NCBI GenBank assembly: GCA_964360335.1
Contig: CAYHVH010000002.1
Span: 804-64,803 of the forward strand
Reading direction: 5' to 3'
Length of the DNA: 64,000 bases
Origin: an uncultured Candidatus Saccharibacteria bacterium
Lineage (GTDB): Bacteria > Patescibacteriota > Doudnabacteria > UBA920 > 2-01-FULL-46-14
Shown here: positions 2,400-50,758 of the stretch, one piece after another
Numbering within the stretch: the stretch's first letter is position 1
Layout: every line of letters starts with the position of its first letter
Program-made: the position numbers and the translations under genes
The notes under the pieces: model-generated
The model's database searches: none
Seen by the model: the letters and a program-made list of their open reading frames with translations, nothing else
What the model was told of the DNA's origin: nothing

Positions 2400-2405
2400 A
2401 CTTCT

Positions 2406-3503
2406 ATGAGCAGGTCTATTATCAAAAAAATTCGTGGCAAGAAGTTCATCCGAGCTTGGGATCATTATGATTCGCCAGTATTGTGGGTCGAATTTTTATG
2501 GATAGCTGATATGCAAAAAATGAAAAAACTATTCGGATTTACATATGGTGGCCATTGTTTTGTTTCAAGAAGTCAAAAAACAAGTTTTTACATCAATGCC
2601 GCCAGCGAAAAGAAAGCAACTAAACTGGGAGCTGAGTATTTTTCGAAACCCACTTTTCTTAAAAAATATATTAGTCAAAGTTTACAGGCCGAACAGCGGC
2701 TGTTGAATATTGTGAAAAATTTCAACGAATCTAAAGTTAGACAGTGGAGTAATAAGCAAATAAGAAAGTACTTCAATCCTTTCTGTGACGCCTTTTCCAC
2801 AATAATGGCCTACTATAGAATTTCGCGCCCGGAGTTTTATAAAAAAACTATACTAAATGCTGACTTAGCTCATAAACTAAGGCCGCTAGGTAAAAGAAGA
2901 TTTCATATGCATCGCACATGGATGGAAGCTTTTGAAAAAGCAGAGCCTTTGTTTGCTGAAATTGCCAAAAGAGCTGGCCTGACCACGATGGAAATTATAA
3001 ACTGTACACAGCGAGAGGTGAATACGATCTTAGATAAGTCGGGAATCCCAGTCAATCTGAAAGAAAGAATAAAAGGATTTGAGTTTATATATAAAGAAAA
3101 CAACTTTATTCTGAATACTTTACGTCTTAATGCTAATGTATTGGAGCCAAGGAAGAATATCACTTCGGTTTCGGGACACAATGCTTTCCCTGGAATTGTA
3201 AAAGGAAAAGTTTTATTTATAGCCGAATCTTTGAAAAAAATAACTTTGCCTATGAACGATGTGCCCAAGAGAGCTGTGCTAGTGACTAATATGACCTCAC
3301 CTAATATGCTCTCAATTATGAAAAAGGCCGTTGCGTTTGTTACTGATGAAGGAGGTATGCTTTGCCATGCAGCTATTGTCGCACGTGAGATGAAAAAACC
3401 TTGCATAATCGGCACCAAAATCGCAACCAAAGTCCTGAAGGACGGCGATTTGGTCGAAGTAGATGCGAATAGGGGAGTCGTCAGAATCTTGAAAAGATCT
3501 TGA
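2406..3503 (+). CDS. PEP-utilising-enzyme swivel-domain protein, paralog 3 (365 aa)
   Basis: ATG at 2406 lies 7 nt after the previous stop. C-terminus GGMLCHAAIVAREMKKPCIIGTKIATKVLKDGDLVEVDANRG. N-terminal region is AT-rich and divergent. Confidence 0.85.
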   Translation: MSRSIIKKIRGKKFIRAWDHYDSPVLWVEFLWIADMQKMKKLFGFTYGGHCFVSRSQKTSFYINAASEKKATKLGAEYFSKPTFLKKYISQSLQAEQRLLNIVKNFNESKVRQWSNKQIRKYFNPFCDAFSTIMAYYRISRPEFYKKTILNADLAHKLRPLGKRRFHMHRTWMEAFEKAEPLFAEIAKRAGLTTMEIINCTQREVNTILDKSGIPVNLKERIKGFEFIYKENNFILNTLRLNANVLEPRKNITSVSGHNAFPGIVKGKVLFIAESLKKITLPMNDVPKRAVLVTNMTSPNMLSIMKKAVAFVTDEGGMLCHAAIVAREMKKPCIIGTKIATKVLKDGDLVEVDANRGVVRILKRS

Positions 3504-3504
3504 C

Positions 3505-3541
3505 ATAGAATTCTATATAGAATATTATATAGTTGAAAGGA
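3505..3541 (+). promoter_or_regulatory. Palindromic operator-like site plus RBS upstream of the antitoxin gene
   Basis: Perfect palindrome ATAGAATTCTAT at 3505-3516, followed by an A/T-rich TATA stretch and AAAGGAG 7 nt before the ATG at 3549. This is the usual arrangement for an autoregulated TA operon. Confidence 0.4.
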
Positions 3542-3548
3542 GACTAAT

Positions 3549-3833
3549 ATGCCAAAAATAAGCATTTTACCCGAGACCGCCTCGGTTCAGGAAATTCAGA
3601 GAAATTATCGTCGGCTCCTCGACAAAGTCAAGTCTACAAGGACGCCTTTATTTATTTTGCGCAATAGCCTTCCCGAAGCAGTAATTGTTGATGTCAAATC
3701 CTGGAATGAAATAGTTACCCGCTTGCAAAAGGAAGAGGAGAGGTTAGCTTTAGAGGCCATAAAAACCTTCGAAACAGAGCGAAGGCGAGGTAAACTGAAG
3801 CTTTTGAAGGGCTCTCTTGCGGATTTAATTTAG
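3549..3833 (+). CDS. Phd/YefM-family antitoxin
   Basis: 94-aa protein with an N-terminal motif (VQEIQRNYRRLLDKVKSTRTPLFILRNSLPEAVIVDVKSW) typical of Phd/YefM. Stop sits 6 nt before the toxin ATG. Confidence 0.8.
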   Translation: MPKISILPETASVQEIQRNYRRLLDKVKSTRTPLFILRNSLPEAVIVDVKSWNEIVTRLQKEEERLALEAIKTFETERRRGKLKLLKGSLADLI

Positions 3834-3839
3834 TACCGC

Positions 3840-4106
3840 ATGGAAATTCGTGAGATTTATTATTCTGAGCATTTCAAAAGGGCTCTGAAAAAATTACCAG
3901 CAGAGCTTAAACCACAAATAAGAACCAGGGAAAAGATTTTTAAAAAGAACTGTTTTGACCCGAGGCTTAAAACACACAAGCTGTCAGGTGCACTGAAAAA
4001 CTTCTGGTCTTTCTCAATCACGCATTCCCACCGCGTTCTTTTTCAGTTTTTAGGAGAGAGGAGGGTAGGTTTTATTGATGTAGGGGACCACTCGATTTAT
4101 CAGTAA
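3840..4106 (+). CDS. RelE/ParE-superfamily (YoeB-like) toxin
   Basis: 88 aa. The ...KLSGALKNFWSFSITHSHRVLFQF...IDVGDHSIY pattern is typical of the RelE/YoeB mRNA-interferase fold. Paired with the upstream antitoxin. Confidence 0.8.
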   Translation: MEIREIYYSEHFKRALKKLPAELKPQIRTREKIFKKNCFDPRLKTHKLSGALKNFWSFSITHSHRVLFQFLGERRVGFIDVGDHSIYQ

Positions 4107-4142
4107 ATTTTATATCCTCCAAAGCTGCCCGATTACGACGCT

Positions 4143-5597
4143 ATGAACCGAAAAGGAATTAATTGGCTAGAGGTTGCCAGGCGAGCGAAAGTCCAGTCTA
4201 CCCTGATTACTGATGCCGCTGCCGAAGGCATCAAGCGCGGATACTATAAAAAGTTTCACGACAACAAAGTCAATTTAACTGCCTACCGTCACTTTGATGC
4301 ATCACGGTCGTTTGATGAGGCGGAAGTTGGCTCGGTCGTGGAGTGGCTCTCGGGACAGGAGAAAAAACGCCCTGGCTTTTTGATTCATTTCGCTCGAAAA
4401 TTAGCCAGGGTTTATCTCAATTTTGCAACATGGGCACACAACACAGTTTATACAGATCCGAAAAAATTCTCAAATAGCGAGTTGGCGCGAAGTTTTTGGA
4501 ATTTTTACGTTAGGAGCTTCTGGTTGGTTAATGACTACGATTATATTTTTGTAAACCGTTTTCTCCCCGACGAAATTACCGAAGCGGTCGCCAAAAAAGT
4601 GCCTGATCTTCACAGGCAGACCCAATACCTTTCTGTCCTTTTCGCCACAGACGAGGTGACCCAGATAAAAGCCGATAAATTGAGTATTCATCGGATAGCA
4701 AGTCGGGTTTTAAAGGGTGAAGGTATCGATTCTACGTCGATAAATTCTGCGATTGAGGTTCATTGGAAAAAATTTAAACATTTAAATCGCTATTACTACT
4801 TGCAGCTTGATTACTCGATTGCCGACATTAAACGACGGGTAAGGTTGACTTTGAAAAAACTTCAAAGGAGGAAAAAAGAGTCCGAGATGAACGTTGCCCA
4901 GGAAAGCAGAAGAATATTGGCCAGTCTAGCGTTTCCCCCGAGACTCGTCAAGAAAGTTTATGCAATCAAATCTTTTGGTTACTTGTCTAATGTGTTCGAT
5001 GAAACCATAACTTTTGCAATAAGCCAGTACGACCCGCTGTTTTTGGAAATCGCGCGTCGGCTGGGCCTTACCCGTACGGAACTTGTAATGGCACGGGGTG
5101 AGGAGATCGTAGACGCACTTGTCCACGGCTTAAGAAAAGATTTGAAAAAGCAGCTTCATCTTAGGAGCCAAGATTATGCGCTGGTTTTAGAGAGAGGAGA
5201 GATTGAAATCTTCACAGGAACACAACTCGCACTATACCGAAAACAGGAGCTTAAATCTGAAAATATTTCAAACAGGCTGCGCGTGCTGAAGGGGCAGGCG
5301 GCTTCGCCAGGAAAGGTCCGGGGCCGGGTTAAAGTTCTGTGGGACCTGGAAGAAATAAACAAGGTTAAAAAGGGCGATATTCTAGTTGCCCCCTCCACTT
5401 ACCCCGCCCTTGTACCTGCTATGGAAAAATCAGCAGCGATAGTGACGAACGAAGGAGGACTTCTTTCTCACGCCGCCATTGTCAGTCGAGAAATTGGGAT
5501 TCCTTGCGTCGTCGGCACGAAAATCGCCACCAAAGTCCTCAAAGACGGGGATTTGGTGGAGGTGGATGCGAATAAAGGGGTTGTGCGTAAGTTATGA
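4143..5597 (+). CDS. PEP-utilising-enzyme swivel-domain protein, paralog 4 (484 aa)
   Basis: C-terminus GQAASPGKVRGRVKVL...GGLLSHAAIVSREIGIPCVVGTKIATKVLKDGDLVEVDANKGVVRKL. Stop overlaps the next gene's start (ATGA). Confidence 0.85.
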   Translation: MNRKGINWLEVARRAKVQSTLITDAAAEGIKRGYYKKFHDNKVNLTAYRHFDASRSFDEAEVGSVVEWLSGQEKKRPGFLIHFARKLARVYLNFATWAHNTVYTDPKKFSNSELARSFWNFYVRSFWLVNDYDYIFVNRFLPDEITEAVAKKVPDLHRQTQYLSVLFATDEVTQIKADKLSIHRIASRVLKGEGIDSTSINSAIEVHWKKFKHLNRYYYLQLDYSIADIKRRVRLTLKKLQRRKKESEMNVAQESRRILASLAFPPRLVKKVYAIKSFGYLSNVFDETITFAISQYDPLFLEIARRLGLTRTELVMARGEEIVDALVHGLRKDLKKQLHLRSQDYALVLERGEIEIFTGTQLALYRKQELKSENISNRLRVLKGQAASPGKVRGRVKVLWDLEEINKVKKGDILVAPSTYPALVPAMEKSAAIVTNEGGLLSHAAIVSREIGIPCVVGTKIATKVLKDGDLVEVDANKGVVRKL

Positions 5598-6199
5598 GCA
5601 AAATTAAGCTCATCATCGTCGATTTTTACGGGGTATTAACCTTGGGCAGTTACCGCGAGACATGTCAGTGGATAGCGAAAAAATTCGGGCTAGACTACGA
5701 TAAAGTCTACAAAATCTTTTACTTTAAGTATTTCAATAAAGCGGCGCTGGGGAAGATTACAGAAAGACAATCCTTCGAGCTTCCCCTGAAAGAACTGGGT
5801 CTAAATGAGGATTGGCAAAAGCTCCGCCGGAAACATTTGTCTTTTCAGAAACTTAATAAACCGGTTTTTAGATTTTTTTTGAGTTTACAGAACAGAGGCT
5901 TTCGGATTCTGTTACTTTCAAAAAACACCCCCCGTCAGTTCAAGGAGACGGTCAAGCGACTGCGAATCAGAAGGTATTTCAAAACTATCATTAATACCTT
6001 TGATTTGCGGTTACCCAAAGCCAGCCCCAAAATGATAAAATATGTTCTGGCCAAATTTAAAATACAGCCTGGCGAGGCGGTATTTGTTGATGACCAAGAT
6101 TTTAACCTCGCAGCGCCAAGACGTTTAGGTGTTCATACAATCCTTTACAAAAATTTTCGCGACCTCAAACGCCGGGTCGAGAGATTACTATACTCCTGA
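5594..6199 (+). CDS. HAD-superfamily hydrolase (phosphatase-like)
   Basis: N-terminal IVDFYGVL (DxYGx motif I) and VFVDDQ (motif IV). 201 aa. Translationally coupled to paralog 4. Confidence 0.7.
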   Translation: MSKIKLIIVDFYGVLTLGSYRETCQWIAKKFGLDYDKVYKIFYFKYFNKAALGKITERQSFELPLKELGLNEDWQKLRRKHLSFQKLNKPVFRFFLSLQNRGFRILLLSKNTPRQFKETVKRLRIRRYFKTIINTFDLRLPKASPKMIKYVLAKFKIQPGEAVFVDDQDFNLAAPRRLGVHTILYKNFRDLKRRVERLLYS

Positions 6200-6895
6200 T
6201 TTGCTTTTGTGTGTTTTGGTTTTTAGGTAGTTGCGGAAAAAAGCAAGTTTAGTTTTGTCCTTTTGCCAGCCAAAGGCGTCGTCCACATACCAGTGCAGAA
6301 GCGTGCGCGCGTCTTTTGAAATGATTTTATGCCGGTACGAATAGTTAATAATATCATAGAGATCGCAAAAGGACTGGAGTCGCACTTTGCTGGGTTTAAT
6401 CCAACGACGATACTTCTTGGCATCTTGTCTGCGGTTTGACCTGGAGACCGGAACAATTACCCAATTTATTTTCAAACCCGCTTGTCTGATGTTCTTTATG
6501 AATTTTACCTTGGAAGCCCCGTGCCCCGTAGCGTCATCCACGAGAATCGCGGTCATTCCTTTTTTGAAGTTTCCTTCCAGTGCTTGCGCTGTCCCGCCCT
6601 TTTTCGGCTCTTTGCGAACGTAACCGTGAAGTTTACCCGACATTAGAGAGAGGGCGGTAGCGATTGGTATGCCTGCAGTAACTCCGCCAATAATGCAATC
6701 AAATTTTATTTTCTTGTCCCTTATGAACTTTAGTATTTCTTGGCAAATTATTTTCAGTCTTCGCGGATCAGAAAAGGTCTTTCGCAAATCGGGATAAATC
6801 GGCACATAATTGCCGCTGGTGGTGACTTTGGGCCCTATGACGTAAAAACCCGGTGTTCCGGCAAAAATCTTGATAATGTTTGCACTTTTTACCAT
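6188..6895 (-). CDS. Type I phosphoribosyltransferase (orotate-PRTase-like) with C-terminal extension
   Basis: PRPP-binding loop ILVDDATGHGAS preceded by GGVTAGIPIATAL. The ORF-track N-terminal extension (to 7090) is rejected; start placed at Met66 (ATG whose complement is at 6893-6895). Confidence 0.65.
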   Translation of the reverse strand: MVKSANIIKIFAGTPGFYVIGPKVTTSGNYVPIYPDLRKTFSDPRRLKIICQEILKFIRDKKIKFDCIIGGVTAGIPIATALSLMSGKLHGYVRKEPKKGGTAQALEGNFKKGMTAILVDDATGHGASKVKFIKNIRQAGLKINWVIVPVSRSNRRQDAKKYRRWIKPSKVRLQSFCDLYDIINYSYRHKIISKDARTLLHWYVDDAFGWQKDKTKLAFFRNYLKTKTHKSKSGV

Positions 6896-6986
6896 AGCTG
6901 GATTTAGTATATAAATTCCCGGACAAAAAAAGAAGGGCGGCGCAGAGCTTTTCCAGCTCTGGCCGCCCCGAATCAGTGGAGCCGGC

Positions 6987-7595
6987 CTACTGTCGGCCGA
7001 GGTTGCCGAGGTAGTCGACGTCGAGCAGGCAGTCGCTCTCAAAGGTGAGGATTGCCACGCTACCCGCTTCGAAGCGTGTACCGACCGCATCTAGTTCGAC
7101 TCCCAGCAGCGCGGCCAGTACCGGTTCCAGTCTGCCGCCGCCGTGACTGGCGATCCCGATAATTTTGCCCGGATAACCCCGGACATACTCCAGAATGGCC
7201 TCCGCCCCCTCTTTTCCACGAGCCATGAGTTGCTCGCGGAATTGAGGATCGCTTAATAGCAGTTCTTCAGCCGAAGTGCCGGTTTCCGTTGCGCGTTTCT
7301 TGAGAGCATCAATCTCTTCCGGCGCAAAGGGGTACCGACCGAGCAAAGCGTCCCCCAGTCGGGGATCGGCACTCGTGAGCGGGACGACTTCCCCCATCCC
7401 AATCATGTTGCAGTAGAGCGTGTCGATCGAGCGGAATTGCGGGGACGAAACCGCGACATCGATTGTTAAGCCCATTTCCTTCAGCCTGGAGCCGGATCTA
7501 ACCGCCCTTTTCCTGGATTCCTCCGGTAGCGCGTTCAAGGGCACATCCGAGCCTTCCCGGCTTTCGTGCCGGATAAACAAAACGGTTGTCTTCAT
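6987..7595 (-). CDS. Histidine-phosphatase superfamily protein (PGAM/SixA branch)
   Basis: N-terminal LFIRHESREG (RH catalytic dyad) and C-terminal GIASHGGG (second catalytic His). 202 aa. Visibly more GC-rich than its neighbours. Confidence 0.75.
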   Translation of the reverse strand: MKTTVLFIRHESREGSDVPLNALPEESRKRAVRSGSRLKEMGLTIDVAVSSPQFRSIDTLYCNMIGMGEVVPLTSADPRLGDALLGRYPFAPEEIDALKKRATETGTSAEELLLSDPQFREQLMARGKEGAEAILEYVRGYPGKIIGIASHGGGRLEPVLAALLGVELDAVGTRFEAGSVAILTFESDCLLDVDYLGNLGRQ

Positions 7596-7637
7596 CTTCC
7601 CCTCCGATTTTGGTTTTGGCCATCAAGAGTAGCATGT

Positions 7638-7666
7638 TTGCGGCTGTCCGTCAAGCTCTATATAAT
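7638..7666 (+). promoter_or_regulatory. Sigma-70-like promoter (TTGCGG-17-TATAAT) for paralog 5
   Basis: TTGCGG at 7638-7643, a 17-nt spacer, then TATAAT at 7661-7666. The in-frame ATG at 7679 is 12 nt downstream, giving a near-leaderless transcript. Confidence 0.4.
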
Positions 7667-7678
7667 TCAAATCAGAAT

Positions 7679-9214
7679 ATGGCTATCATTTGGAAAAAAA
7701 AGGAAGCATTGCGCTGCGATTTCAATGTTCCGGCCGACACGATTCCCGGCTGGTATCACCTGCAGACGAAAACCATCGGCCAACACGCGATCACGAAAAG
7801 TCTTTTTGTTTTTGAAAACGGGGTCTTGGCCGGCTATTACCTTCCCAAAAAAGAGCTGCGAAAAATCGCAACTCTCACTCTGCGAGCGGTATTGGAAAAC
7901 CCGACGCGCATCGACCGCGTTCACAAACGAGCCACGGATCTTAACTGGCAGTATTTTCGTTTTGCCGAAAAAATCCGGAAGCTTGATTTAACCAAGCTTA
8001 CCAACCGACAACTCCTTAAGCTCCATTCGCGGCTTTTTAGATTACAGATGCTGAGTCACTGCTATGCTCAACCCACGACTTGGTTTGTGGACAGTGACGG
8101 AAACGATTTAACTAATTATTTGATGAATTTCCTGAAGCGGCGAATTCAGGCCACTCGGGAAAGACTGGATTTTGCCGCTGCTTTCAGCATTTTGACGACA
8201 CCTTCCAGGATAACGCTCGGCAGTCAGGAAGAGAAAGAGTCACTGCAAATCCTGGAGTGGATACAAAAGCAGGCGAAAGTGAAGAACTGGTTTCTTGCCA
8301 AGAACCGTTCGCCATTAAGCCAGAAGTTCACGCAGCTTCCCGCGGCCGCCAGAAGCAAACTTTACCGCCATTATTACAAATGGACCTGGCTCCCGTACGC
8401 ATACACCGGGCCCCCATATAGCTTGGATTATTATTTGGATGTCTGGAGAGGGCTGTTGCGGGAAAGAGTAAATCCGCAAAAGGAGATTAAGGGAAAATCG
8501 CAGCAAGCCCTGGAAACGCGCAGGCGACATGCTGTTCTGTTCAAAAAGCTCAAATTTAGCGGCTATGAAAAGAAATTATTTGATACTGCTGCCGACATCG
8601 TCTGGCTTAAAGGGTTTCGCAAGGATTGTTATTTTCACGGTTTTTTCGTCCTGGATTTGATCCTTGCAGAAATCGGCAAGCGCACGGGTTTAGCCTTGAA
8701 GCAGGTAAAGTTTTTGCTGCCGCTGGAACTGCCCCTGGCGTTGCGCGGCAAAGACCTGACAAATCTTGTGAACGAAAGGATCAATTTCTCGCTGCTGTAT
8801 GGGGTCAAGGGGCGCATCAAAGCTTTGAGTGGCAGAGCCGCGCATGTTTTCTTGAAAAAATTCCGCTTTCAAAGGGAGAGGCGAGAAAGTTTTGGGGGTA
8901 AGCTCTTCGGTACTTGCGCTTGTCCAGGGGCGGCGAGGGGAGCGGTGAGGATCGTGAACTATCCCGAGGAAATGGGCAGGATGAAATCCGGCGATATCAT
9001 GTTGGCGACGCAGACTTATCCGTCATTGGTGCCGGCCATGAAAAAAGCGGCGGCAATCGTGACGGAAGAGGGCGGGCTCACTTGCCATGCCGCAATTGTC
9101 TCTCGAGAGCTCAAAATTCCCTGTATAGTAGGCATAAAGGGCCTGCTTACCTTTTTGAAAGATGGCGATAGGATAGAGGTGGATGCAAATAAAGGGGTGG
9201 TGAGGAAGTTATGA
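7679..9214 (+). CDS. PEP-utilising-enzyme swivel-domain protein, paralog 5
   Basis: C-terminus GTCACPGAARGAVRIV...GGLTCHAAIVSRELKIPCIVG...GDRIEVDANKGVVRKL. Start is ambiguous: the track uses TTG at 7586, and in-frame ATGs occur at 7634 and 7679. 7679 was chosen because of the upstream promoter-like box. Confidence 0.75.
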   Translation: MAIIWKKKEALRCDFNVPADTIPGWYHLQTKTIGQHAITKSLFVFENGVLAGYYLPKKELRKIATLTLRAVLENPTRIDRVHKRATDLNWQYFRFAEKIRKLDLTKLTNRQLLKLHSRLFRLQMLSHCYAQPTTWFVDSDGNDLTNYLMNFLKRRIQATRERLDFAAAFSILTTPSRITLGSQEEKESLQILEWIQKQAKVKNWFLAKNRSPLSQKFTQLPAAARSKLYRHYYKWTWLPYAYTGPPYSLDYYLDVWRGLLRERVNPQKEIKGKSQQALETRRRHAVLFKKLKFSGYEKKLFDTAADIVWLKGFRKDCYFHGFFVLDLILAEIGKRTGLALKQVKFLLPLELPLALRGKDLTNLVNERINFSLLYGVKGRIKALSGRAAHVFLKKFRFQRERRESFGGKLFGTCACPGAARGAVRIVNYPEEMGRMKSGDIMLATQTYPSLVPAMKKAAAIVTEEGGLTCHAAIVSRELKIPCIVGIKGLLTFLKDGDRIEVDANKGVVRKL

Positions 9215-10590
9215 AAATAACTTGGAAACGCTTGTGGGCGAGAAGGTATGCGCCGTTTTTGGGCGGTATCTTCACTCTGGCCTTCAGCAGACGCAACCCA
9301 TACGGGTTCAGTCGGAACAAATTGTTCGTACCGGAGGGAGATTTGCATGCGTGCTATTTTGCAAAACGCGAATTTGAAAACATTGTTCGCAACTACGCCC
9401 GCTTTGTCCGAAAACAAAATTTAAAACGTTATGCCGTACGTTACGAAGCGTATTTTAAACGATTTCTTAAAGGAGCAAAGCAATTCGCCAGGATAAATTA
9501 CGCCACGCTGGACAACCTAGAACTTGCTGACTTATTAGAGAGGATTACGGCATTTTACGCCGATTATGCGGAAGTTCAGTATCTTGGTTTTGTAATTTTA
9601 GAGGGGCCGGGCAGGCAACTGGAAAAAGCATTGGCGCGATACGCTAACCAAACAGAAATTTCGCAATGGGTGGCAACACTCTACAAAATTCCGAAAATTA
9701 CAAAAGCCCGTTTGGAACTACTGCGGCTGGTTCGCGACCATAAGGCCAGCGCGAGCGCGTTGAGGAGATATCTGAAAAAATATTCTTGGATTCCGATATA
9801 TGATTTTGTGGATCGACCCTGGACGCTCAAAGACATAAAAGCCCAGGTCAAGGCCGTCAAAGATGCAGGCGCAGAAATCAAGCAATACCGGGAGAGCAGG
9901 CGCAAGAGTTTGCACAGACTTCATAACTTCCTGCGAAACTTGCAAAGCCGAAAACTGAAAAAACTGATTGAAATCGTCCATACATTTTCGTATCTCAAAG
10001 ATATGCGGGACGACTATCGGCGGCAGACTTATTTTCTTTTGCGCCCATTTTGGCAGGAAGTTGGAAAAAGGCTCGGGGTTACTTTCGTGCAGGCCAATTA
10101 TCTGTTGTCGGAGGAGCTGGTCAGGCTTTTAAGTACGGGGCAGAAGCCCAGCCTCAAGCTGATTTCCGCGAGGCAAAAGACCTATTCATTTTCATTGATA
10201 GGGGGAAAACTCCGCATTTTTGCCGGAGATTTGACCAAGCAATATCTGGTCCAGCATGGTACACAAGAAACAAGTATTCTCAAGGGGACCGCTGCCCATC
10301 CAGGAATTGTGCGCGGCCCCGCGAAAGTTATTTATCATAACGGCGAGTTTGAAAAACTTAGAAAGGGTGACATTTTAGTGACAGTCATGACCCACCCGGA
10401 GTTTTTACCGATAATGAAGCTGGCCGCGGCGTTTGTGACTGACGAAGGCGGAATCACCTGCCATGCCGCAATCGTAGCGCGGGAGCTTGAGAAACCCTGC
10501 GTTATCGGCACGAAAATCGCCACCAAAGTTCTGAAGGACGGCGATTTGGTGGAAGTCGATGCTGACGAAGGAATTGTAAGAAAACTGTAA
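9211..10590 (+). CDS. PEP-utilising-enzyme swivel-domain protein, paralog 6 (459 aa)
   Basis: ATGA overlap with paralog 5. C-terminus GTAAHPGIVRGPAKVI...GGITCHAAIVARELEKPCVIGTKIATKVLKDGDLVEVDADEG. The KKYSWIPIYDF motif is present. Confidence 0.85.
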   Translation: MKITWKRLWARRYAPFLGGIFTLAFSRRNPYGFSRNKLFVPEGDLHACYFAKREFENIVRNYARFVRKQNLKRYAVRYEAYFKRFLKGAKQFARINYATLDNLELADLLERITAFYADYAEVQYLGFVILEGPGRQLEKALARYANQTEISQWVATLYKIPKITKARLELLRLVRDHKASASALRRYLKKYSWIPIYDFVDRPWTLKDIKAQVKAVKDAGAEIKQYRESRRKSLHRLHNFLRNLQSRKLKKLIEIVHTFSYLKDMRDDYRRQTYFLLRPFWQEVGKRLGVTFVQANYLLSEELVRLLSTGQKPSLKLISARQKTYSFSLIGGKLRIFAGDLTKQYLVQHGTQETSILKGTAAHPGIVRGPAKVIYHNGEFEKLRKGDILVTVMTHPEFLPIMKLAAAFVTDEGGITCHAAIVARELEKPCVIGTKIATKVLKDGDLVEVDADEGIVRKL

Positions 10591-10601
10591 CTGTAATAAG
10601 T

Positions 10602-12059
10602 ATGGCGAAATATTTTAAATTCGGGTCGTGGTCTATTAGCATACTGCATTATTCTCTTTACTATTGGAATAAAAGAGAACTAGTTTTTCTGCGCCCAATT
10701 AGGTGGCACCAAGATCAACTAGCTGAATACCTCGGTTACAAGCAAGACGAAAGGCGAATGTATCGGATTTGGAATGATCGAATTGTGAAAGACGCTCAAT
10801 ATATGTATCGGTATGGGAAAGAACACGAAAAGAATTTTAGAAATGTCGTTAATTACTTAAACAAAAAAATATCGAAAGTTAAATCAGCTAAAAGATTAGA
10901 AATTCTTAGAATTTTTAATAAATACTGGTCCCTGCTTTTTCTGTCAGAACCTATCGGTGATATAAATCACACAGTAGATGAAATCTATACTAAAAGGATA
11001 ATGGGCCCCTTGAAGCAAATTCTCTATAAGATTGGCAAGGAAGAAAAGGTTACAGAATATATGCTGGGTTTGACAACGCCTTGGGAGTCTTTGCCAACAC
11101 AGAAAGAAGATATGCAATTCCTACTCTTTGCTAGAGACGTCAATAAAGGGAAAGTTAAAGATGTCAATGCATTTTTTCAAAAACATCTTAAGCAATATGC
11201 TTGGATTCCGGTATGGTATGATAATAAACCCTGGGATATAAATGACTTGAAATCTAGACTAAATTCAGAGCTTAAGTTTGGTGATTTTGCCCAGCGAATT
11301 AATCGACTAAAAAATTACGGAAAAAGTACCAAACTAATCAATCGCAAGCAAAAAGCCGAACTTAAAGTTAGCGGTAGGCTACTTCAGGACATAGACGCTC
11401 TTAGGTACTTCACCTATATTCGGAATCTAGTTGACTTGCACACCGGTTACATAGTGCATAAAGCCAGGCCAATTTATGAAAAAATTGCCAATTTTTTGGA
11501 AATTAGCTTTGATGAGTTAAAATATCTCACTCCGAATGAAATTCGACTTGGTTTGAAAAACAAATTACCGCTAAAAGCTGTTAAAAGTCAAATCACACAG
11601 CGGCAAAAATTTGCTTTGACAATCTTTAGCAGATCAAAACAAAAAGTCTTAGCCGGGCTTAAGGCAAAAAGAGAATATCTAAGAATTAAAGAGGAGATTC
11701 AGAAAGAATCACCTAAGAAAAGTGTGGAATTAAGGGATCAAAAGCTTAGCGGAATTGGTGCCTCCCTCGGTAAGGCCAAGGGCCGGGCAAGGGTAATAAA
11801 AAGCATTTCGGAGTTGAATACGATGAAAGAGGATGAAATTTTGATTGTACCCTCAACTTCTGTTGATTTCGTGGGAGCTATGAAAAAATCGGTCGCGGTA
11901 GTGACAGAGATAGGCGGTATTACTTGTCATGCGGCAATCGTTTCTCGGGAACTTGGCAAGCCTTGTATTGTTAATACCTTAATCGCAACAAAAGTTTTTA
12001 AAACTGGCGATCTTGTGGAAGTAGATGCGAATAAAGGGATAGTAAGAAAATTAACCTAA
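10602..12059 (+). CDS. PEP-utilising-enzyme swivel-domain protein, paralog 7 (485 aa)
   Basis: C-terminus GIGASLGKAKGRARVI...GGITCHAAIVSRELGKPCIVNTLIATKVFKTGDLVEVDANKG. N-terminus is very AT-rich. The KQYAWIPVWYDNKPW motif is present. Confidence 0.85.
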   Translation: MAKYFKFGSWSISILHYSLYYWNKRELVFLRPIRWHQDQLAEYLGYKQDERRMYRIWNDRIVKDAQYMYRYGKEHEKNFRNVVNYLNKKISKVKSAKRLEILRIFNKYWSLLFLSEPIGDINHTVDEIYTKRIMGPLKQILYKIGKEEKVTEYMLGLTTPWESLPTQKEDMQFLLFARDVNKGKVKDVNAFFQKHLKQYAWIPVWYDNKPWDINDLKSRLNSELKFGDFAQRINRLKNYGKSTKLINRKQKAELKVSGRLLQDIDALRYFTYIRNLVDLHTGYIVHKARPIYEKIANFLEISFDELKYLTPNEIRLGLKNKLPLKAVKSQITQRQKFALTIFSRSKQKVLAGLKAKREYLRIKEEIQKESPKKSVELRDQKLSGIGASLGKAKGRARVIKSISELNTMKEDEILIVPSTSVDFVGAMKKSVAVVTEIGGITCHAAIVSRELGKPCIVNTLIATKVFKTGDLVEVDANKGIVRKLT

Positions 12060-24572: not shown

Positions 24573-25532
24573 ATGAAAAAAACGGTGAATGTTGGGGGCA
24601 TTCCGGTCGGGGCGGATTATCCAGCTCTGGTTATAGGAGAGATAGGTATAAACGCCAATGGCGTTATGGATATCGCAATGAAGCTGATTGATGTTGCCGC
24701 AGATGTTGGGTGTGGTGCCGTCAAGTTCCAAAAGCGCGATATTAATAAAGTTTTCTCAGCAGACGCGCTGGCGAAATCCTGGGCAGGGGGGATGCCCGCA
24801 GAGTTGCTCCAAAACGCAATTGCCAGAGGAGTTCTTCAGGAAGAGAATGTAAGACGTTTACGGGCAACGAATTTCTCGGATGTTACAGAAGGCGATTTCA
24901 GATGGACGATCGAGTTTACGGAGGAAGAGTTCAAACAAATTGACGCATACTGTAAAAAGAAGGAGATTATATGGTACGCCTCTCCCTGGGATATGGAGAG
25001 TGTGGACGTACTTGAGCGGCTCGGGGTACCATGTTACAAGGTCGCGTCTGCATCGATCTCGGATCATCCGCTTTTGAAGCATATCCGGTCAAAAGGTAAG
25101 CCCGTTATCCTTGCAACCGGGATTAGCGAGATGAACGAGGTAGATGCCGCGGTGGATATTCTGGGCAGAGAGAACCTTATTATTCTACATTGTGTTTCCA
25201 CTTATCCGTCCGAAGACTCTGAGCTGAATCTCCGCGTCATTCATACTCTACAGAATCGCTTTCCCGGTGTTCCCGTCGGCTACAGTGGACACGAGCGGGG
25301 TGTAGCGACATCAGTGGCGGCAGTGGCCCTTGGTGCCTGCATGGTTGAGCGGCATATTACGCTTGATCGCGGAATGTATGGCCCTGATCAGGCAGCTAGT
25401 GTCGATCCAGAAAACCTCCGAATAATGGTCCGCGATATTCGGAGTGTTGAGGCCGCGCTTGGTGATGGTGTGAAACGTTTTCTCGATAGGGAGCGCCCCG
25501 TCAGAAAAATGTTGGAGACCCGCTCTTCCTAA
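24573..25532 (+). CDS. NeuB-family PEP-dependent ulosonic/nonulosonic acid synthase (TIM-barrel part; no C-terminal SAF domain)
   Basis: ALVIGEIGINANGVMDIAMKLIDVAADVGCGAVKFQKR and ILHCVSTYPS...GYSGHERG match NeuB/SpsE. 319 aa, ending before the usual antifreeze-like (SAF) domain. Confidence 0.8.
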   Translation: MKKTVNVGGIPVGADYPALVIGEIGINANGVMDIAMKLIDVAADVGCGAVKFQKRDINKVFSADALAKSWAGGMPAELLQNAIARGVLQEENVRRLRATNFSDVTEGDFRWTIEFTEEEFKQIDAYCKKKEIIWYASPWDMESVDVLERLGVPCYKVASASISDHPLLKHIRSKGKPVILATGISEMNEVDAAVDILGRENLIILHCVSTYPSEDSELNLRVIHTLQNRFPGVPVGYSGHERGVATSVAAVALGACMVERHITLDRGMYGPDQAASVDPENLRIMVRDIRSVEAALGDGVKRFLDRERPVRKMLETRSS

Positions 25533-39004: not shown

Positions 39005-39034
39005 GGGCCTATCTCGCGCGAGATAGGCCTTTTT
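39005..39034 (+). terminator. Rho-independent terminator
   Basis: gcctatctcgcg | cgcgagataggc (12-bp perfect palindrome) followed by TTTTT at 39030-39034, directly after the stop at 39000. Confidence 0.7.
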
Positions 39035-39091
39035 GTTCCATTGTCAACTCTTCTAAATTCCGGTAAAATTCAGTTATTGTTTAGCTTCGGA

Positions 39092-40438
39092 ATGTCTATC
39101 TTTGAAAAAGTTTTTGGCGGCAATCCAATCAAAAGTCTCGAAATTATGAAAATTGATTTTCACGTTCATACGTCCTATTCTCATGATGCTTCTGATTCGC
39201 CGCAAAAATTAATCGACCGGGCTTTGCAAATAGGTCTTGATGCAATTTGCATCACTGACCATAATACCATTGCCGGACTCGAGGAAACAGCCGCCTACGC
39301 CTCGGACAAGCCGATATTAATCATTCCCGGAATTGAAATTCATACCCGTGATGGGCATGTTTTGGGTATCAATGTCACGAAAAAAATTGAGCCGGGACTA
39401 AATTTCGAAGATACAGTGAGACAAATTCGAGATGGTGGAGGAATTGCCATTTTGGCGCACCCCTTTTTTTGGCCACACCATTTTAAGGCCTGGGAGAGGG
39501 TTGATTTTACCAAAATCCGTGATTATTTTGACGGAATAGAAATAATCAACACCTCTGTGTTTCGCAGGGCAAACCGCAAAGCTAGAGTTTTAGCGGAAAA
39601 GTTCGGCCTTCCAGTAACGGCCGGCTCTGATTCGCACAGTCGTGATTATCTCGGCAAAGGGTTTATCGAATTGACCGGTCACGGTCTTACAAGCAAAGAA
39701 GTGGTTGAGGCTATACTCTCCAACCATCCCGGAAATAGGGTTATCGGGCAGGAAATTAAACTTTTGGAAAAGGTAAAATCAGCGGGAATCATTTTTCGGG
39801 AGACGAGGAAAACCCGAGTCAGAGCCGCAGGCACGGAACTGGGGATAATGTCTTTTTTAAAAAACCGCGTCAAGCGGCGGGGTCCAAAAATTGGCAGATT
39901 GGGCTCTTCTCTAGGGCTGCCGCCTAATTTTTTTACCCTCCTGTCTATGGGGTTTGGTGGACTGGTCCTAATCTTTCTCGTAAAAATTAATCTTATTTTT
40001 GCATCTATATTTTTTGCAGCCGCGATTTTTCTGGACTTTGTGGACGGGGCTCTAGCCCGGGCCACTGGTCAGGAAACGACAAAAGGGGCTTATCTGGATA
40101 CCGTGGCTGACCGATATGTCGAAGCCCTGGCTTGGCTAGGATTTTTGTTCCTTCCCTTACCCACCTATTTTTTTGCTCCCCAGATATGGATATTTTTAGG
40201 CTTATTTGGAGGACTCATGACTGCTTACGTCAAGGCAGCAGCAGCGGAAAAAAACTTAGTTCAGGAAGAACTTCCGGATGGCTTTTTCAGTCGGCCCGAG
40301 AGAACCCTTTCCCTCTTAGTAGCTATGGCGGTCGGGCTTTTTGATCTGAAGCTAACTATGATTATTTTAATCTTCGTGGCTTTGGCCGCAAATCTCGCCG
40401 CTTGGCAGAGATTTGCAGCTTACACAAGACATGAATAA
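39092..40438 (+). CDS. Fusion protein: N-terminal PHP-family phosphoesterase plus C-terminal CDP-alcohol phosphatidyltransferase
   Basis: N-terminus: MKIDFHVHTSYSHD...CITDHNT...ILAHPF (PHP metal-binding His/Asp motifs). C-terminus: D-FVDGALARATGQETTKGAYLDTVADRYVE matches the CDP-OH phosphatidyltransferase signature DG..AR...G...D...D inside a polytopic membrane domain. The start could be ATG 39092 or 39146 (the track uses TTG 39041). Confidence 0.75.
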   Translation: MSIFEKVFGGNPIKSLEIMKIDFHVHTSYSHDASDSPQKLIDRALQIGLDAICITDHNTIAGLEETAAYASDKPILIIPGIEIHTRDGHVLGINVTKKIEPGLNFEDTVRQIRDGGGIAILAHPFFWPHHFKAWERVDFTKIRDYFDGIEIINTSVFRRANRKARVLAEKFGLPVTAGSDSHSRDYLGKGFIELTGHGLTSKEVVEAILSNHPGNRVIGQEIKLLEKVKSAGIIFRETRKTRVRAAGTELGIMSFLKNRVKRRGPKIGRLGSSLGLPPNFFTLLSMGFGGLVLIFLVKINLIFASIFFAAAIFLDFVDGALARATGQETTKGAYLDTVADRYVEALAWLGFLFLPLPTYFFAPQIWIFLGLFGGLMTAYVKAAAAEKNLVQEELPDGFFSRPERTLSLLVAMAVGLFDLKLTMIILIFVALAANLAAWQRFAAYTRHE

Positions 40439-40994
40439 CTTGATGGTCTTGATAGGGCAAAGTTTGTATTTTTATTTGCCGGCGTATTTTGCAAACATGA
40501 CTCCACCCGTGATCGCGAAGCTGGGGCTCGTAAAATTCCTGGATAAACCCATGGACTTTGGAGCAAGCTATAAAGGCATACGCATTTTGGGTGATAATAA
40601 AACTTGGCGAGGGTTAGTGTCTGGAACAATCGTCGGAATGGTTGTATTTCTGGTTCAAGCAGAACTTTTCTCCATACCCTACTTTCAAAGGATTTCGCTC
40701 CTCGACTATAATAGTGGAGAGAAAAAGCTTTTGGTTGGGTTTTTCCTGGCCTTTGGGGCCTTGTTTGGAGACGCCCTATTTAGTTTTTTTAAGCGCCGGA
40801 TCGGGCTTGCATCCGGGCGAAAGTGGATTCCCTTTGATCAAATTGACCATGTCATTGGCGCATTTCTTTTGACCTCGCTGGTCCTGCCGCTCGATTTAAA
40901 AGTTTGGCTTCTGGTTTTGATCCTGACTTTTTTCCTGCATTTATTTGTGAATCGGATCGGGTTCGGTCTAGGAATCTCAGAAAGTAAATTTTAG
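40431..40994 (+). CDS. CDP-archaeol synthase-like (CarS/DUF46) CTP:lipid cytidylyltransferase
   Basis: Membrane protein with GDNKTWRG and GDALFSFFKRRIGLASGRKWIPFDQIDHVIGA, which resembles the CarS/CdsA-type cytidylyltransferase signature. Overlaps the upstream stop (ATGAATAA). Confidence 0.6.
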   Translation: MNNLMVLIGQSLYFYLPAYFANMTPPVIAKLGLVKFLDKPMDFGASYKGIRILGDNKTWRGLVSGTIVGMVVFLVQAELFSIPYFQRISLLDYNSGEKKLLVGFFLAFGALFGDALFSFFKRRIGLASGRKWIPFDQIDHVIGAFLLTSLVLPLDLKVWLLVLILTFFLHLFVNRIGFGLGISESKF

Positions 40995-49159: not shown

Positions 49160-50758
49160 ATGTTTAGCAACGCGGGCCTCAACCCAACCAAGGAGCACAT
49201 CAACGTGTTCGCCAGAACGAACTTCCGAAACCGAGAAGTGGCTTTTGGCATCAAGCAGGACGACCGGCGCCGCCATATGTACATCATCGGCAAAACCGGG
49301 ATGGGCAAAACAACGATGATTGAAAACATGATTGTCCAGGACATTATCGCCGGACACGGGGTGGCGTTCGTCGATCCGCATGGCGAATCCGTGGAGAAAA
49401 TCCTCAACTACATACCCACGTCCCGCGTCAATGACGTCATCTATTTTAACCCGGCCGATCTGGATTATCCAATTGCCTTTAATCCCCTAGAATCCGTGGA
49501 CCCAAAATATAAACACCTGGTGGCTTCGGGACTGATGGGGGTATTTACGAAAATTTGGGAAAACGTCTGGAGCGCGCGCATGGAGTACATCCTCAACAAT
49601 ACCATCCTCGCCCTCTTGGACACTCCCGGCAACACCATGCTCGGGATCGCCCGGATGCTCGTGGACAAGCAGTTCCGCAAAAAAATCGTGGACAATATCC
49701 GGGATCCGATTGTCAAATCCTTTTGGGTCGATGAATTTGCCAACTACAACGACCGCTTCCGCAACGAGGCCATTGCTCCGATTCAAAATAAAGTCGGGCA
49801 ATTCCTGTCTTCGGCCATCATCAGGAACATCGTCGGCCAGCCGAAAAGCACGATTGACCTCCGGGAAATTATGGATCAAAAAAAGATTCTCCTTTTGAAC
49901 CTTTCCAAAGGCCGCATCGGGGAAGACAACTCCGCGCTCCTGGGCGCAATGTTCATCACCAAAGTGCAGCTCGCCGCCATGAGCCGGGTGGATATGCCGG
50001 AGGAGAATCGCACTGACTTTTATCTCTACGTCGACGAATTCCAAAATTTCGCCACCGAGTCATTTGCGACCATTCTCTCGGAGGCCAGGAAGTACCATCT
50101 CAACCTCACGATTGCCCACCAGTACATCGAACAGCTCGACGAAAAAGTCGCCGCCGCGGTTTTCGGCAACGTCGGAACGATTATCGTCTTTCGGATCGGC
50201 GCCACGGATGCGGAAGCCCTGGAACCGGAATTCGAACCAATCTTTGAGATGACTGATTTGGTCAACTTGAGCAAATACCACATTTATCTCAAATTGATGA
50301 TTAATGGCGTGGCTTCCCAGCCGTTCTCCGCCGTAACCCTGCCCCCGCTCGCGGAAAAAACTGGAAACGAGGAGAAAATCATCCGGGTGTCGCGCGAACG
50401 TTACAGCCGTCTTCGGGAAAAGATCGAGGAGAAAATTACGCGCTGGATGGGTCAGGAATACCATCAGGAAGCCGCCCAGCAAGATCTCACGGCAGAAGAC
50501 GAAGATCAGGAAAGGGGAGGGGTGATCTTTACCGGCCCCACGGCCCGGAGACCAAACGTCGCCAGCACGGAAATGCCCAAAGCAGCGCCCGCTCCCGAGA
50601 GGCCTCAACCAAAACCGGCGGCGCGGCAGGAACATCCGGTCTGGCAACAGGTCGCCGCAGAAACGCAAAAAAAGACCGAGGAGGCGGCCAAAAAACTCGC
50701 CAAAGGCTTGCGTTTTGACTTCGGCAAAAACAGGCCGGAACCACCCCAACAGCAATAG
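49160..50758 (+). CDS. VirD4/TraG/TraD-superfamily (type IV coupling-protein-like) P-loop ATPase with disordered Pro/Glu-rich tail
   Basis: Walker A IIGKTGMGKTT; Walker B-like FYLYVDEFQNFATESFATILSEARKYHLNLTIAHQYIEQLD. C-terminal ~110 aa is low-complexity (PKAAPAPERPQPKPAARQ...). The family call is from motif pattern only. Confidence 0.55.
   Translation: MFSNAGLNPTKEHINVFARTNFRNREVAFGIKQDDRRRHMYIIGKTGMGKTTMIENMIVQDIIAGHGVAFVDPHGESVEKILNYIPTSRVNDVIYFNPADLDYPIAFNPLESVDPKYKHLVASGLMGVFTKIWENVWSARMEYILNNTILALLDTPGNTMLGIARMLVDKQFRKKIVDNIRDPIVKSFWVDEFANYNDRFRNEAIAPIQNKVGQFLSSAIIRNIVGQPKSTIDLREIMDQKKILLLNLSKGRIGEDNSALLGAMFITKVQLAAMSRVDMPEENRTDFYLYVDEFQNFATESFATILSEARKYHLNLTIAHQYIEQLDEKVAAAVFGNVGTIIVFRIGATDAEALEPEFEPIFEMTDLVNLSKYHIYLKLMINGVASQPFSAVTLPPLAEKTGNEEKIIRVSRERYSRLREKIEEKITRWMGQEYHQEAAQQDLTAEDEDQERGGVIFTGPTARRPNVASTEMPKAAPAPERPQPKPAARQEHPVWQQVAAETQKKTEEAAKKLAKGLRFDFGKNRPEPPQQQ

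Follow-up and report, generated by a model that had tools for sequence, protein, structure and literature searches.

A PHP phosphoesterase fused to a CDP-alcohol phosphatidyltransferase in a patescibacterial operon predicted to make inositol phospholipids

The 64,000-nucleotide (nt) stretch of contig CAYHVH010000002.1 analyzed here (the window) comes from an ultra-small groundwater bacterium of the Patescibacteria, or candidate phyla radiation (CPR), and carries an operon in which a PHP phosphoesterase is fused to a cytidine diphosphate (CDP)-alcohol phosphatidyltransferase and is followed by an overlapping gene of the CarS family. On the strength of sequence comparisons, we consider it on balance probable that this operon performs the last three steps of inositol phospholipid synthesis. 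In the proposed pathway, the CarS-family enzyme would use cytidine triphosphate to convert a membrane lipid phosphate, phosphatidic or archaetidic acid, into a CDP-lipid. The C-terminal six-helix domain of the fusion would join the lipid phosphate to a phospho-alcohol, the likeliest being 1L-myo-inositol-1-phosphate, and so give phosphatidyl- or archaetidyl-inositol phosphate (PIP or AIP) and cytidine monophosphate (CMP). The N-terminal PHP domain, tethered by a short linker to a cytoplasmic juxtamembrane helix beside the cytoplasm-facing active site, would then strip the head-group phosphate and leave the mature inositol lipid. What the sequences show are the identities of the domains, their intact catalytic residues, the fusion itself and the conservation of the gene neighborhoods; acceptor, PHP substrate and lipid core are inferred from these.

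The original prediction, a reading of the window's letters alone, had placed an N-terminal PHP domain and a C-terminal CDP-alcohol transferase domain in one product. Pfam bears this out, since PHP (PF02811; residues 22-86, 54.0 bits, cut-off 26.4), PHP_C (PF13263; residues 159-210, 49.0 bits, cut-off 21.3) and CDP-OH_P_transf (PF01066, class I; residues 278-428, 56.3 bits, cut-off 22) all score above their cut-offs. The PHP part also matches the NCBIfam CehA/McbA metallohydrolase domain (92.9 bits, cut-off 80). The transferase signature that had been pointed out is exact, D315xxD318G319xxA322R323x8G332xxxD336xxxD340, and the PHP part does not lack its metal-binding constellation: all nine ligands of the trinuclear site are present (H24, H26, D32, H57, E82, H89, H123, D180 and H182). 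These ligands are invariant in 28 transferase-linked PHPs, except position 89, which is His or Asp.

Structure prediction, which had been suggested as a check, returned a PHP barrel, a juxtamembrane helix and six transmembrane helices. The AlphaFold2 (AF2) model has a predicted local distance difference test (pLDDT) score of 89.1 and a predicted template modeling score of 0.69. The PHP barrel, a distorted TIM barrel, is confident, with pLDDT above 90 over most of the domain; it is followed by a helix at 224-245 and a low-confidence linker at 245-251. The juxtamembrane helix spans residues 252-273, and the transmembrane helices span 280-297, 301-325, 330-351, 363-386, 401-414 and 419-446. Foldseek matched the PHP part to TM0559 (2anu; E 3e-10, target-normalized TM-score 0.71-0.73) and RNase AM (7ug9; 0.68), and the membrane part to Mycobacterium tuberculosis (Mtb) PgsA1 (6H53 and 6H59; 0.76-0.79).

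The two halves of the fusion are separate genes in every relative, and their pairing is strongly conserved. Proteins of the subfamily that includes the transferase half have 195-200 residues, come from Patescibacteria and bear only the annotation 'CDP-alcohol phosphatidyltransferase family protein'. When one genome per GTDB species was scanned, 284 relatives were found, and neighbors were tabulated around the best 80 with hidden Markov models (HMMs) built from the sequences of this analysis. These 80 loci comprise 48 labeled bacterial (nearly all Patescibacteria, under the names Nealsonbacteria, Parcubacteria, Paceibacterota and Minisyncoccales, with L080 labeled Chloroflexi) and 32 DPANN archaeal ones, at similar identities of 38-52%. 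The distance from a PHP gene to the transferase is at most 200 bp in 31/48 bacterial and 2/32 archaeal loci, at most 3 kb in 38/48 and 5/32, and at most 6 kb in 40/48 and 7/32; the PHP gene either precedes the transferase on the same strand or follows it in convergent orientation. For a gene with about one copy in a genome of about 1000 genes, chance adjacency would, as a rough expectation rather than a computed value, account for a fraction of one locus. The conserved adjacency carries the functional inference even if the fusion itself is neutral.

The reverse test gave a consistent picture. An independent set of metagenome contigs was searched with an alignment of the 28 linked PHPs, and loci with both flanks present were scored. 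A transferase lies within 3 kb of 19/22 PHPs that reach at least 290 bits on the subfamily HMM, and of 1/24 PHPs below that score; there is therefore a discrete PHP subfamily dedicated to the transferase context. A general link between PHP proteins and transferases was rejected, because two relatives from Aenigmarchaeota (P0008 and P0013, at most 37% identity) do not adjoin a transferase, which makes the link subfamily-specific. The contexts of two other PHP fusions, one with a GT4 glycosyltransferase (P0009), where the stretch was too short, and one with a HAD hydrolase (P0007), were uninformative.

The loci fall into two types. Type I, found only in bacteria and including the window, usually has thiolase, FakA, MscS-like and CarS genes on one strand and PHP and transferase genes on the other, then DegV, PlsY and a terminal HAD gene. 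Type II, found in bacteria and DPANN archaea, has a small gene of 100 codons, the gene of inositol-1-phosphate synthase (MIPS), a second such small gene, then the transferase, a HAD gene in some loci, and a PHP gene in convergent orientation. CarS lies within 1.5 kb of the transferase in 22/48 bacterial and 2/32 archaeal loci, and MIPS and CarS never occur together beside one transferase. No genome among the 80 loci gave both types, which fits orthologs in different lineages. In a neighbor-joining tree the DPANN sequences form one clade and the bacterial ones another, within which type I is sister to type II and a long basal branch holds the window and L002. The sole column that separates type I from type II transferases is residue 400.

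Some features of these loci are recorded here in their own right. The small-gene product belongs to a family of about 100 residues lacking a Pfam match, which flanks MIPS, often on both sides (L017, L018, L021, L023, L029, L043 and about 30 others; for example L021:4509-4808), and is the most frequent neighbor, in 19 bacterial and 14 archaeal loci of Patescibacteria and DPANN; it may serve the inositol module as a regulator or a subunit. At L031:3533-7011, MIPS and a convergent PHP gene flank three tandem transferase paralogs, of which the third is very divergent (103 bits) and, in the alignment, lacks some catalytic-motif residues. The labels of L022, L034 and L080 clash with the gene tree: L022 (Pacearchaeota, with PlsY) falls within bacterial type II, and L080 lies beside an Iainarchaeum locus. 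These are probably mis-binned or mislabeled contigs of metagenome-assembled genomes.

Several comparisons bear on the acceptor. Against solved structures, the subfamily profile scores 68.9 bits with AF2299, 65.8 with IPCT-DIPPS and 62.7 with Mtb PgsA1, and just 28.6 with Staphylococcus aureus PgsA; the NCBIfam pgsA models give about 25 bits on the transferase. The best NCBIfam model is that of AIP synthase (NF040950), which covers positions 4-187 of 191. In Mtb PgsA1, the pocket for the phosphate of inositol phosphate consists of R94, S132, K135, R152, R155 and R195 (PMC6506517). The counterparts in the window, by HMMER alignment, are R341, A378, K381, R401, R404 and R440, and the five basic residues are essentially invariant across the archaeal, type II and type I groups (84 relatives). 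The commonest other neighbor of the transferase subfamily is MIPS, found within 3 kb in 40/80 loci (19/48 bacterial and 21/32 archaeal), its identity confirmed by Pfam (PF01658, 121.6 bits). Judged by these sequences, the acceptor is very likely a phospho-alcohol, and inositol-1-phosphate is the best candidate. We assign the transferase to its nearest clade only, and not as an equivalog member of the AIP or PIP synthases. The idea of a synthase joined to its own product phosphatase, put forward in the original prediction, gains support from the PHP-transferase adjacency, the MIPS neighbors and the conserved PgsA1 pocket residues.

Among the PHP enzymes are nucleases and also phosphomonoesterases, histidinol phosphatase and the bisphosphate nucleotidase Cv1693 being examples of the latter. 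The nearest solved relatives of the PHP part are TM0559, Cv1693 (2yb1, a 3',5'-bisphosphate nucleotidase) and RNase AM (7ug9 and 9etk). Where the fusion has its basic helix at 224-245, the stand-alone counterparts of the PHP part end in basic amphipathic tails, with mostly 8-12 Lys/Arg (5-12 overall) and 0-6 Asp/Glu in the last 35 residues, and such tails fit peripheral membrane binding. Because the N-terminus and active-site pocket of PIP synthases are cytoplasmic (PMC6506517), the PHP site of the fusion would be tethered beside the point where the product exits. The product of such a synthase has to lose its phosphate, and the enzyme for this step has been assigned only in Bacteroides, where it belongs to the PgpA family (PMC9246714). 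For mycobacteria the PIP phosphatase is called 'yet-unidentified' (PMC6506517), and for archaea the AIP phosphatase is 'unidentified' in a review of phospholipid synthesis from 2022 (PMC9385802). The simplest interpretation would make the PHP domain the PIP or AIP phosphatase.

The second gene was said to resemble CarS rather than CdsA, and the profiles agree: Pfam CarS-like (PF01864) scores 120.8 bits (cut-off 22) and the CdsA family CTP_transf_1 25.7. The CDP-archaeol synthase equivalog NF003114 is passed marginally (149.2 bits, cut-off 148). Against Aeropyrum pernix CarS (5GUF; 46.1 bits, E 5.6e-11), the GD.KT..G and GD...S..KRR.G......DQ.D motifs are aligned. The gene probably starts at ATG 40431 or 40443, which would give 183-187 residues, as in its homologs. 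Its overlap with the fusion gene is 26 nt if translation begins at the TTG and 8 nt if it begins at ATG 40431, and the two genes are translationally coupled. A search returned 191 homologs at E ≤ 1e-8, the nearest all from Patescibacteria, including Saccharimonadales, and named CDP-archaeol synthase by NCBI and the Joint Genome Institute (JGI). The suggestion that this complement is unusual for a bacterium did not hold, as the CarS-like gene is ordinary and widespread in Patescibacteria and only the fusion is unique. Our literature search found no paper that discusses a CarS-like gene in Patescibacteria, and CarS is not among the enzymes analyzed by Coleman 2019. In locus L001, a 119-residue gene call after the fusion might be taken for a truncated CarS; this was rejected as an artifact of a run of N inside the CarS gene (L001:4194-4215, corresponding to window 40733-40736).

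The lipid core is somewhat more likely to be acyl than isoprenoid or mixed, because relatives place these genes among those of fatty-acid salvage. In type I relatives, the CarS-like gene lies among FakA (fatty-acid kinase), DegV (as FakB), PlsY and sometimes PlsC, and also near a fusion of a FabA-like protein with nitronate monooxygenase, a short-chain dehydrogenase/reductase (SDR) and a thiolase. Loci L003, L020, L025 and L104 carry UbiA and geranylgeranyl reductase (GGR) beside the cluster; the first three of these also have a polyprenyl synthase, and L003 has PcrB as well. Most relatives have FakA, DegV and PlsY in place of isoprenoid genes. Patescibacteria of the Paceibacteria/Nealsonbacteria type include ectoparasites of methanogenic archaea. 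Such bacteria might activate isoprenoid ether or mixed cores and give them new head groups by an archaeal-type route that combines CarS, a DPANN-type AIP synthase and a PHP phosphatase; the cores would be scavenged from the host or self-made with UbiA, GGR and PcrB. Their membranes would then cross the lipid divide, and the same PHP subfamily would be the missing AIP/PIP phosphatase, at least in DPANN archaea. We regard this wider proposal as a speculation with a small chance of being right.

The type I loci lie within a larger lipid island (L010:1-8063, L020:177-8531, L025:1-7944 and L003:513-8748). Its genes encode the FabA-like-nitronate monooxygenase (FabK-like) fusion, a FabG-like SDR, thiolase, DUF362, DUF359, BioY, FakA, several DegV proteins and PlsY, and some islands add UbiA, GGR, polyprenyl synthase and PcrB.

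Several observations weigh against inositol lipid synthesis by this operon. On the AIP synthase equivalog NF040950 the transferase reaches 108.3 bits, where the cut-off is 180, and on the PIP synthase equivalog NF045883 it reaches 60.3, where the cut-off is 170. At the position of Mtb S132 the window has Ala378, where 77/80 relatives have Thr. No MIPS was found in the window, by Pfam on the 20 larger open reading frames (ORFs) and by HMMs on all ORFs of at least 60 residues, and none lies up to 9 kb from any of the type I (CarS-linked) loci. The nearest characterized PHP relatives, Cv1693 and RNase AM, are nucleotide phosphatases or RNases and not lipid phosphatases, and HAD hydrolase genes, which are alternative phosphatase candidates, recur in these loci. 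With respect to the donor, characterized archaeal CarS strongly favors digeranylgeranylglyceryl phosphate over phosphatidic acid and is unable to replace Escherichia coli CdsA (PMC9385802). An HMM scan of all window ORFs of at least 60 residues found no PcrB/GGGPS, UbiA/DGGGPS, GGR, PlsY or FakA, and no DegV or polyprenyl synthase.

The same architecture could serve another head group. The acceptor would then be glycerol phosphate, the transferase a phosphatidyl- or archaetidyl-glycerophosphate synthase, and the PHP domain a phosphatidylglycerophosphate phosphatase. This reading draws on the unmet AIP and PIP equivalog cut-offs and on the type I loci, the window among them, which are never near MIPS and sit among PlsY, FakA and DegV, which need glycerol-3-phosphate. 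JGI labels several subfamily members phosphatidylglycerophosphate synthase, and no physiological substrate has been assigned to AF2299, the solved structure closest in sequence. However, the subfamily profile scores far lower with S. aureus PgsA than with the inositol-phosphate enzymes, and the pgsA models likewise score low. Type I is, moreover, the sister clade of the MIPS-linked transferases, with all pocket residues in common and one discriminating column, and the separation of the two locus types among genomes fits orthologs rather than paralogs with different substrates. Glycerol phosphate seems an unlikely acceptor.

A phosphatase for the lipid product need not be the PHP domain itself. 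PHP could instead hydrolyze a nucleotide by-product or regulator (CMP, 3'-phosphoadenosine 5'-phosphate or a CDP-alcohol) or, as a phosphodiesterase, recover head groups from lipids scavenged from the host, and the product phosphatase would be another enzyme, such as a neighboring HAD protein. The closest solved PHPs are in keeping with such a role, and HAD genes recur between the transferase and PHP genes in type II loci, where many are HAD_2 genes, and near PlsY in type I loci. Fusions also exist between PHP and HAD (P0007) and between a CDP-alcohol transferase and HAD in Prevotella veroralis (PMC9246714). Yet the PHP neighbor, present at 40/48 bacterial loci and retained in type I and type II alike, is far more constant than HAD. 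A subfamily of their own, with membrane-type tails, unites the linked PHPs, and the N-terminal fusion puts PHP at the mouth of the transferase active site, by the AF2 model and the known topology (PMC6506517). The PHP superfamily also has bona fide small-molecule phosphomonoesterases, histidinol phosphatase being one. We therefore find it improbable that PHP acts elsewhere than on the lipid product.

The fusion was checked in three assemblies: the window and the loci L001 (ERZ1292623) and L094 (ERZ1292627), ENA contigs from replicate 0.1-µm groundwater samples. L001 and L094 have the identical intact 448-residue ORF, and differ from the window only by synonymous single-nucleotide polymorphisms (SNPs) within the gene (39920, 40330 and 39610). 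The three assemblies (two replicate samples) are concordant over the junction, at a low ENA contig coverage of about 3-5x. The other two frames of the junction are closed for more than 60 codons, save the last 23, and homology to the PHP tail stays in frame 0 up to about 14 codons before M253. A frameshift artifact near the out-of-frame TAATG was rejected, because the other frames are closed, the frame-0 homology is continuous and the three assemblies agree; the last ~12 codons are less constrained, and nothing supports a frameshift there. Alignment with split homologs shows a clean end-to-end join, in which residues 19 to ~252 correspond to the stand-alone PHP protein and M253 (ATG 39848) matches the ancestral start of a 196-residue transferase. 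In L002 the PHP and transferase genes abut in the same frame with one stop codon between them, and in L003 they overlap by 29 nt.

No second protein spanning both halves was found. A word-indexed search of 5.8 billion clusters gave 101 matches, among which only the query itself spans both, and no other protein did so among the best 150 matches of an exhaustive phmmer scan of 1.84 billion representatives. Another fusion comparably similar in both halves would have ranked near the top of those searches. The fusion is unique to one population and a single-population event, while the gene set itself is not unique. Separate initiation at M253 is possible, because the junction keeps an SD (Shine-Dalgarno)-like GGGGA and the out-of-frame TAATG. 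On another reading the fusion means little functionally: one population may recently have lost a stop codon, or the assemblies may share a base-calling error, and the transferase may still be made separately from M253. This could be argued from the confinement of the fusion to one population, the single substitution that would fuse the L002 genes, the retained GGGGA and ancestral ATG, and the low coverage, but is very doubtful given that the three assemblies agree at the junction despite different synonymous SNPs elsewhere in the gene, that the alternative frames are closed, and that all catalytic residues of both halves are intact, so that the gene is not decaying.

Other PHP fusions were seen in the searches. 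In P0009 (L090:137-2059), P0418, P0430 and P0442, a GT4 enzyme (Glyco_transf_4 in all four, Glycos_transf_1 in two) is fused to a C-terminal PHP+PHP_C part, which is 37-38% identical to the window PHP. By analogy, these look like another phospho-acceptor enzyme paired with its phosphatase. The GT4 enzyme MshA uses inositol-1-phosphate, and to our knowledge the phosphatase for its product is not known. The PHP-HAD fusion P0007 (L091:8001-9401) is a 466-residue protein in which PHP+PHP_C is joined to a HAD_2 hydrolase.

The features of the operon are collected in Table 1. The terminator separates the upstream TPR-like gene from the lipid operon, and ATG 39092 is the first ATG past the terminator and the promoter-like site; homologs begin at M19 (39146). 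No terminator with a comparable stem lies between the fusion gene and SecA (41001), and the matches inside the two genes have stems of 5-6 bp. The tRNA and Rfam scans of the window were both empty.

Table 1. Features of the operon and its upstream flank, in window coordinates
Feature	Coordinates	Strand	Basis
Intrinsic-terminator hairpin, 11-bp stem and T tail; ends upstream TPR-like gene	39005..39030	+	
Sigma-70-like promoter match TTGTCA-17-TAAAAT, 10 of 12, best in region	39041..39069	+	consensus match only
Fusion gene, PHP phosphoesterase and CDP-alcohol phosphatidyltransferase, 448 residues	39092..40438	+	ORF continuous from 39041; intact in L001 and L094
PHP and PHP_C catalytic domain, residues 19-215	39146..39736	+	Pfam, ligand set, AF2 pLDDT, fold matches
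Basic helix ending the PHP part, residues 224-245, then low-confidence linker 245-251	39761..39826	+	AF2
Fusion junction: SD-like GGGGA, out-of-frame TAA overlapping ATG (TAATG), M253 as ancestral transferase start	39841..39850	+	
Transferase part, residues 253-448: juxtamembrane helix and six transmembrane helices	39848..40435	+	profiles, AF2
Catalytic CDP-alcohol signature D315xxDGxxARx8GxxxDxxxD340	40034..40111	+	
CarS-family CTP:lipid-phosphate cytidylyltransferase (predicted)	40413..40994	+	Pfam, NCBIfam, 5GUF match

Elsewhere in the window, six paralogous ORFs of 365-542 residues occupy 900-12059 on the plus strand (900-2399, 2406-3503, 4143-5597, 7586-9214, 9211-10590 and 10602-12059). 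Only their C-terminal PEP-utilizers mobile phosphohistidine domain is recognized (PF00391, 75-92 bits), the N-terminal 290-470 residues having no Pfam match, and small ORFs and a HAD hydrolase are interspersed among them. The plus strand also carries a NeuB-family gene resembling sialic/legionaminic-acid synthases (24573-25532), which adjoins a HAD hydrolase, and a 532-residue homolog of VirD4/TrwB-type coupling proteins (49160-50758).

The usual account of Patescibacteria is that they lack lipid biosynthesis, and according to a 2024 review no mechanism by which they take up lipids has been identified (PMC11665869; bioRxiv 2022.04.20.488981). Our literature search on CarS, inositol or PHP in CPR, DPANN and Saccharibacteria found no description of the present module. 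As a Rosetta-stone case, the fusion together with the conserved pair provides a concrete candidate family, the PHP subfamily, for the PIP/AIP phosphatase step in mycobacteria and archaea. More general than the fusion are the conserved pairing of PHP and transferase genes, the association with MIPS and a conserved lipid island, in which related loci combine the pair with FakA, DegV/FakB, PlsY, a CarS-like gene and sometimes PlsC, UbiA or GGR. Probst et al. left the source of acyl-phosphate for PlsY unaccounted for in Nealsonbacteria lacking PlsX (PMC7242380). FakA and DegV would supply it, which offers a possible answer for these bacteria. The occurrence of a CarS-family enzyme and a DPANN-type transferase in a bacterial fatty-acid salvage context also makes the specificity of lipid-divide enzymes directly testable.

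Among known systems, the mycobacterial and actinobacterial PIP synthase (PgsA1; 6H53, 5D91 and 6WM5) shares with the window the CDP-alcohol signature, the six-helix fold and the residues R94, K135, R152, R155 and R195, as well as the two-step logic of a synthase followed by a phosphatase. The two are only about 24% identical, however; the window enzyme has a fused N-terminal PHP domain and Ala at the S132 position, and mycobacteria have no known partner phosphatase. The archaeal AIP synthase (NF040950) is comparable in that the subfamily is common to DPANN archaea, whose genes adjoin MIPS. Its equivalog score, well short of the cut-off, marks the window enzyme as a distinct CPR/DPANN subfamily; the host is a bacterium, and the donor may be CDP-diacylglycerol, not CDP-archaeol. 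Archaeal CarS, known from the A. pernix structure and the characterized Archaeoglobus fulgidus enzyme, resembles the second gene in profile scores and aligned catalytic motifs. In contrast to these archaeal enzymes, which discriminate against phosphatidic acid, the window gene is bacterial and its relatives lie amid fatty-acid salvage genes.

In Bacteroides thetaiotaomicron, a clustered pathway has been demonstrated genetically, with BT_1526 as MIPS, BT_1523 as PIP synthase and BT_1525 as PIP phosphatase (PMC9246714). Type II loci follow the same gene logic, although the Bacteroides phosphatase is a separate protein of the PgpA family and its donor synthase is CdsA, not CarS. The A. fulgidus enzymes IPCT-DIPPS (4MND) and AF2299 (4O6M), the top matches in sequence and structure, are transferases of the inositol-phosphate clade with an extra N-terminal cytoplasmic domain. 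Unlike PHP, those domains are a cytidylyltransferase that makes the CDP-inositol donor, or a small domain with no assigned role, and neither is a phosphatase; DIPPS, moreover, makes a soluble osmolyte and not a lipid. The P. veroralis protein (PMC9246714) is likewise an inositol-lipid-cluster transferase fused to a member of a phosphatase-type superfamily, but its partner is HAD rather than PHP, and it has been proposed to use CDP-inositol and diacylglycerol, with the HAD part as a phosphatidylinositol-ceramide synthase. To conclude, the predicted module would work like the two-step routes of mycobacteria, archaea and Bacteroides, and would differ from them in four respects: a phosphatase candidate of the PHP family, its fusion to the synthase, a donor synthase of the CarS type, and a CPR host with a DPANN-type transferase.

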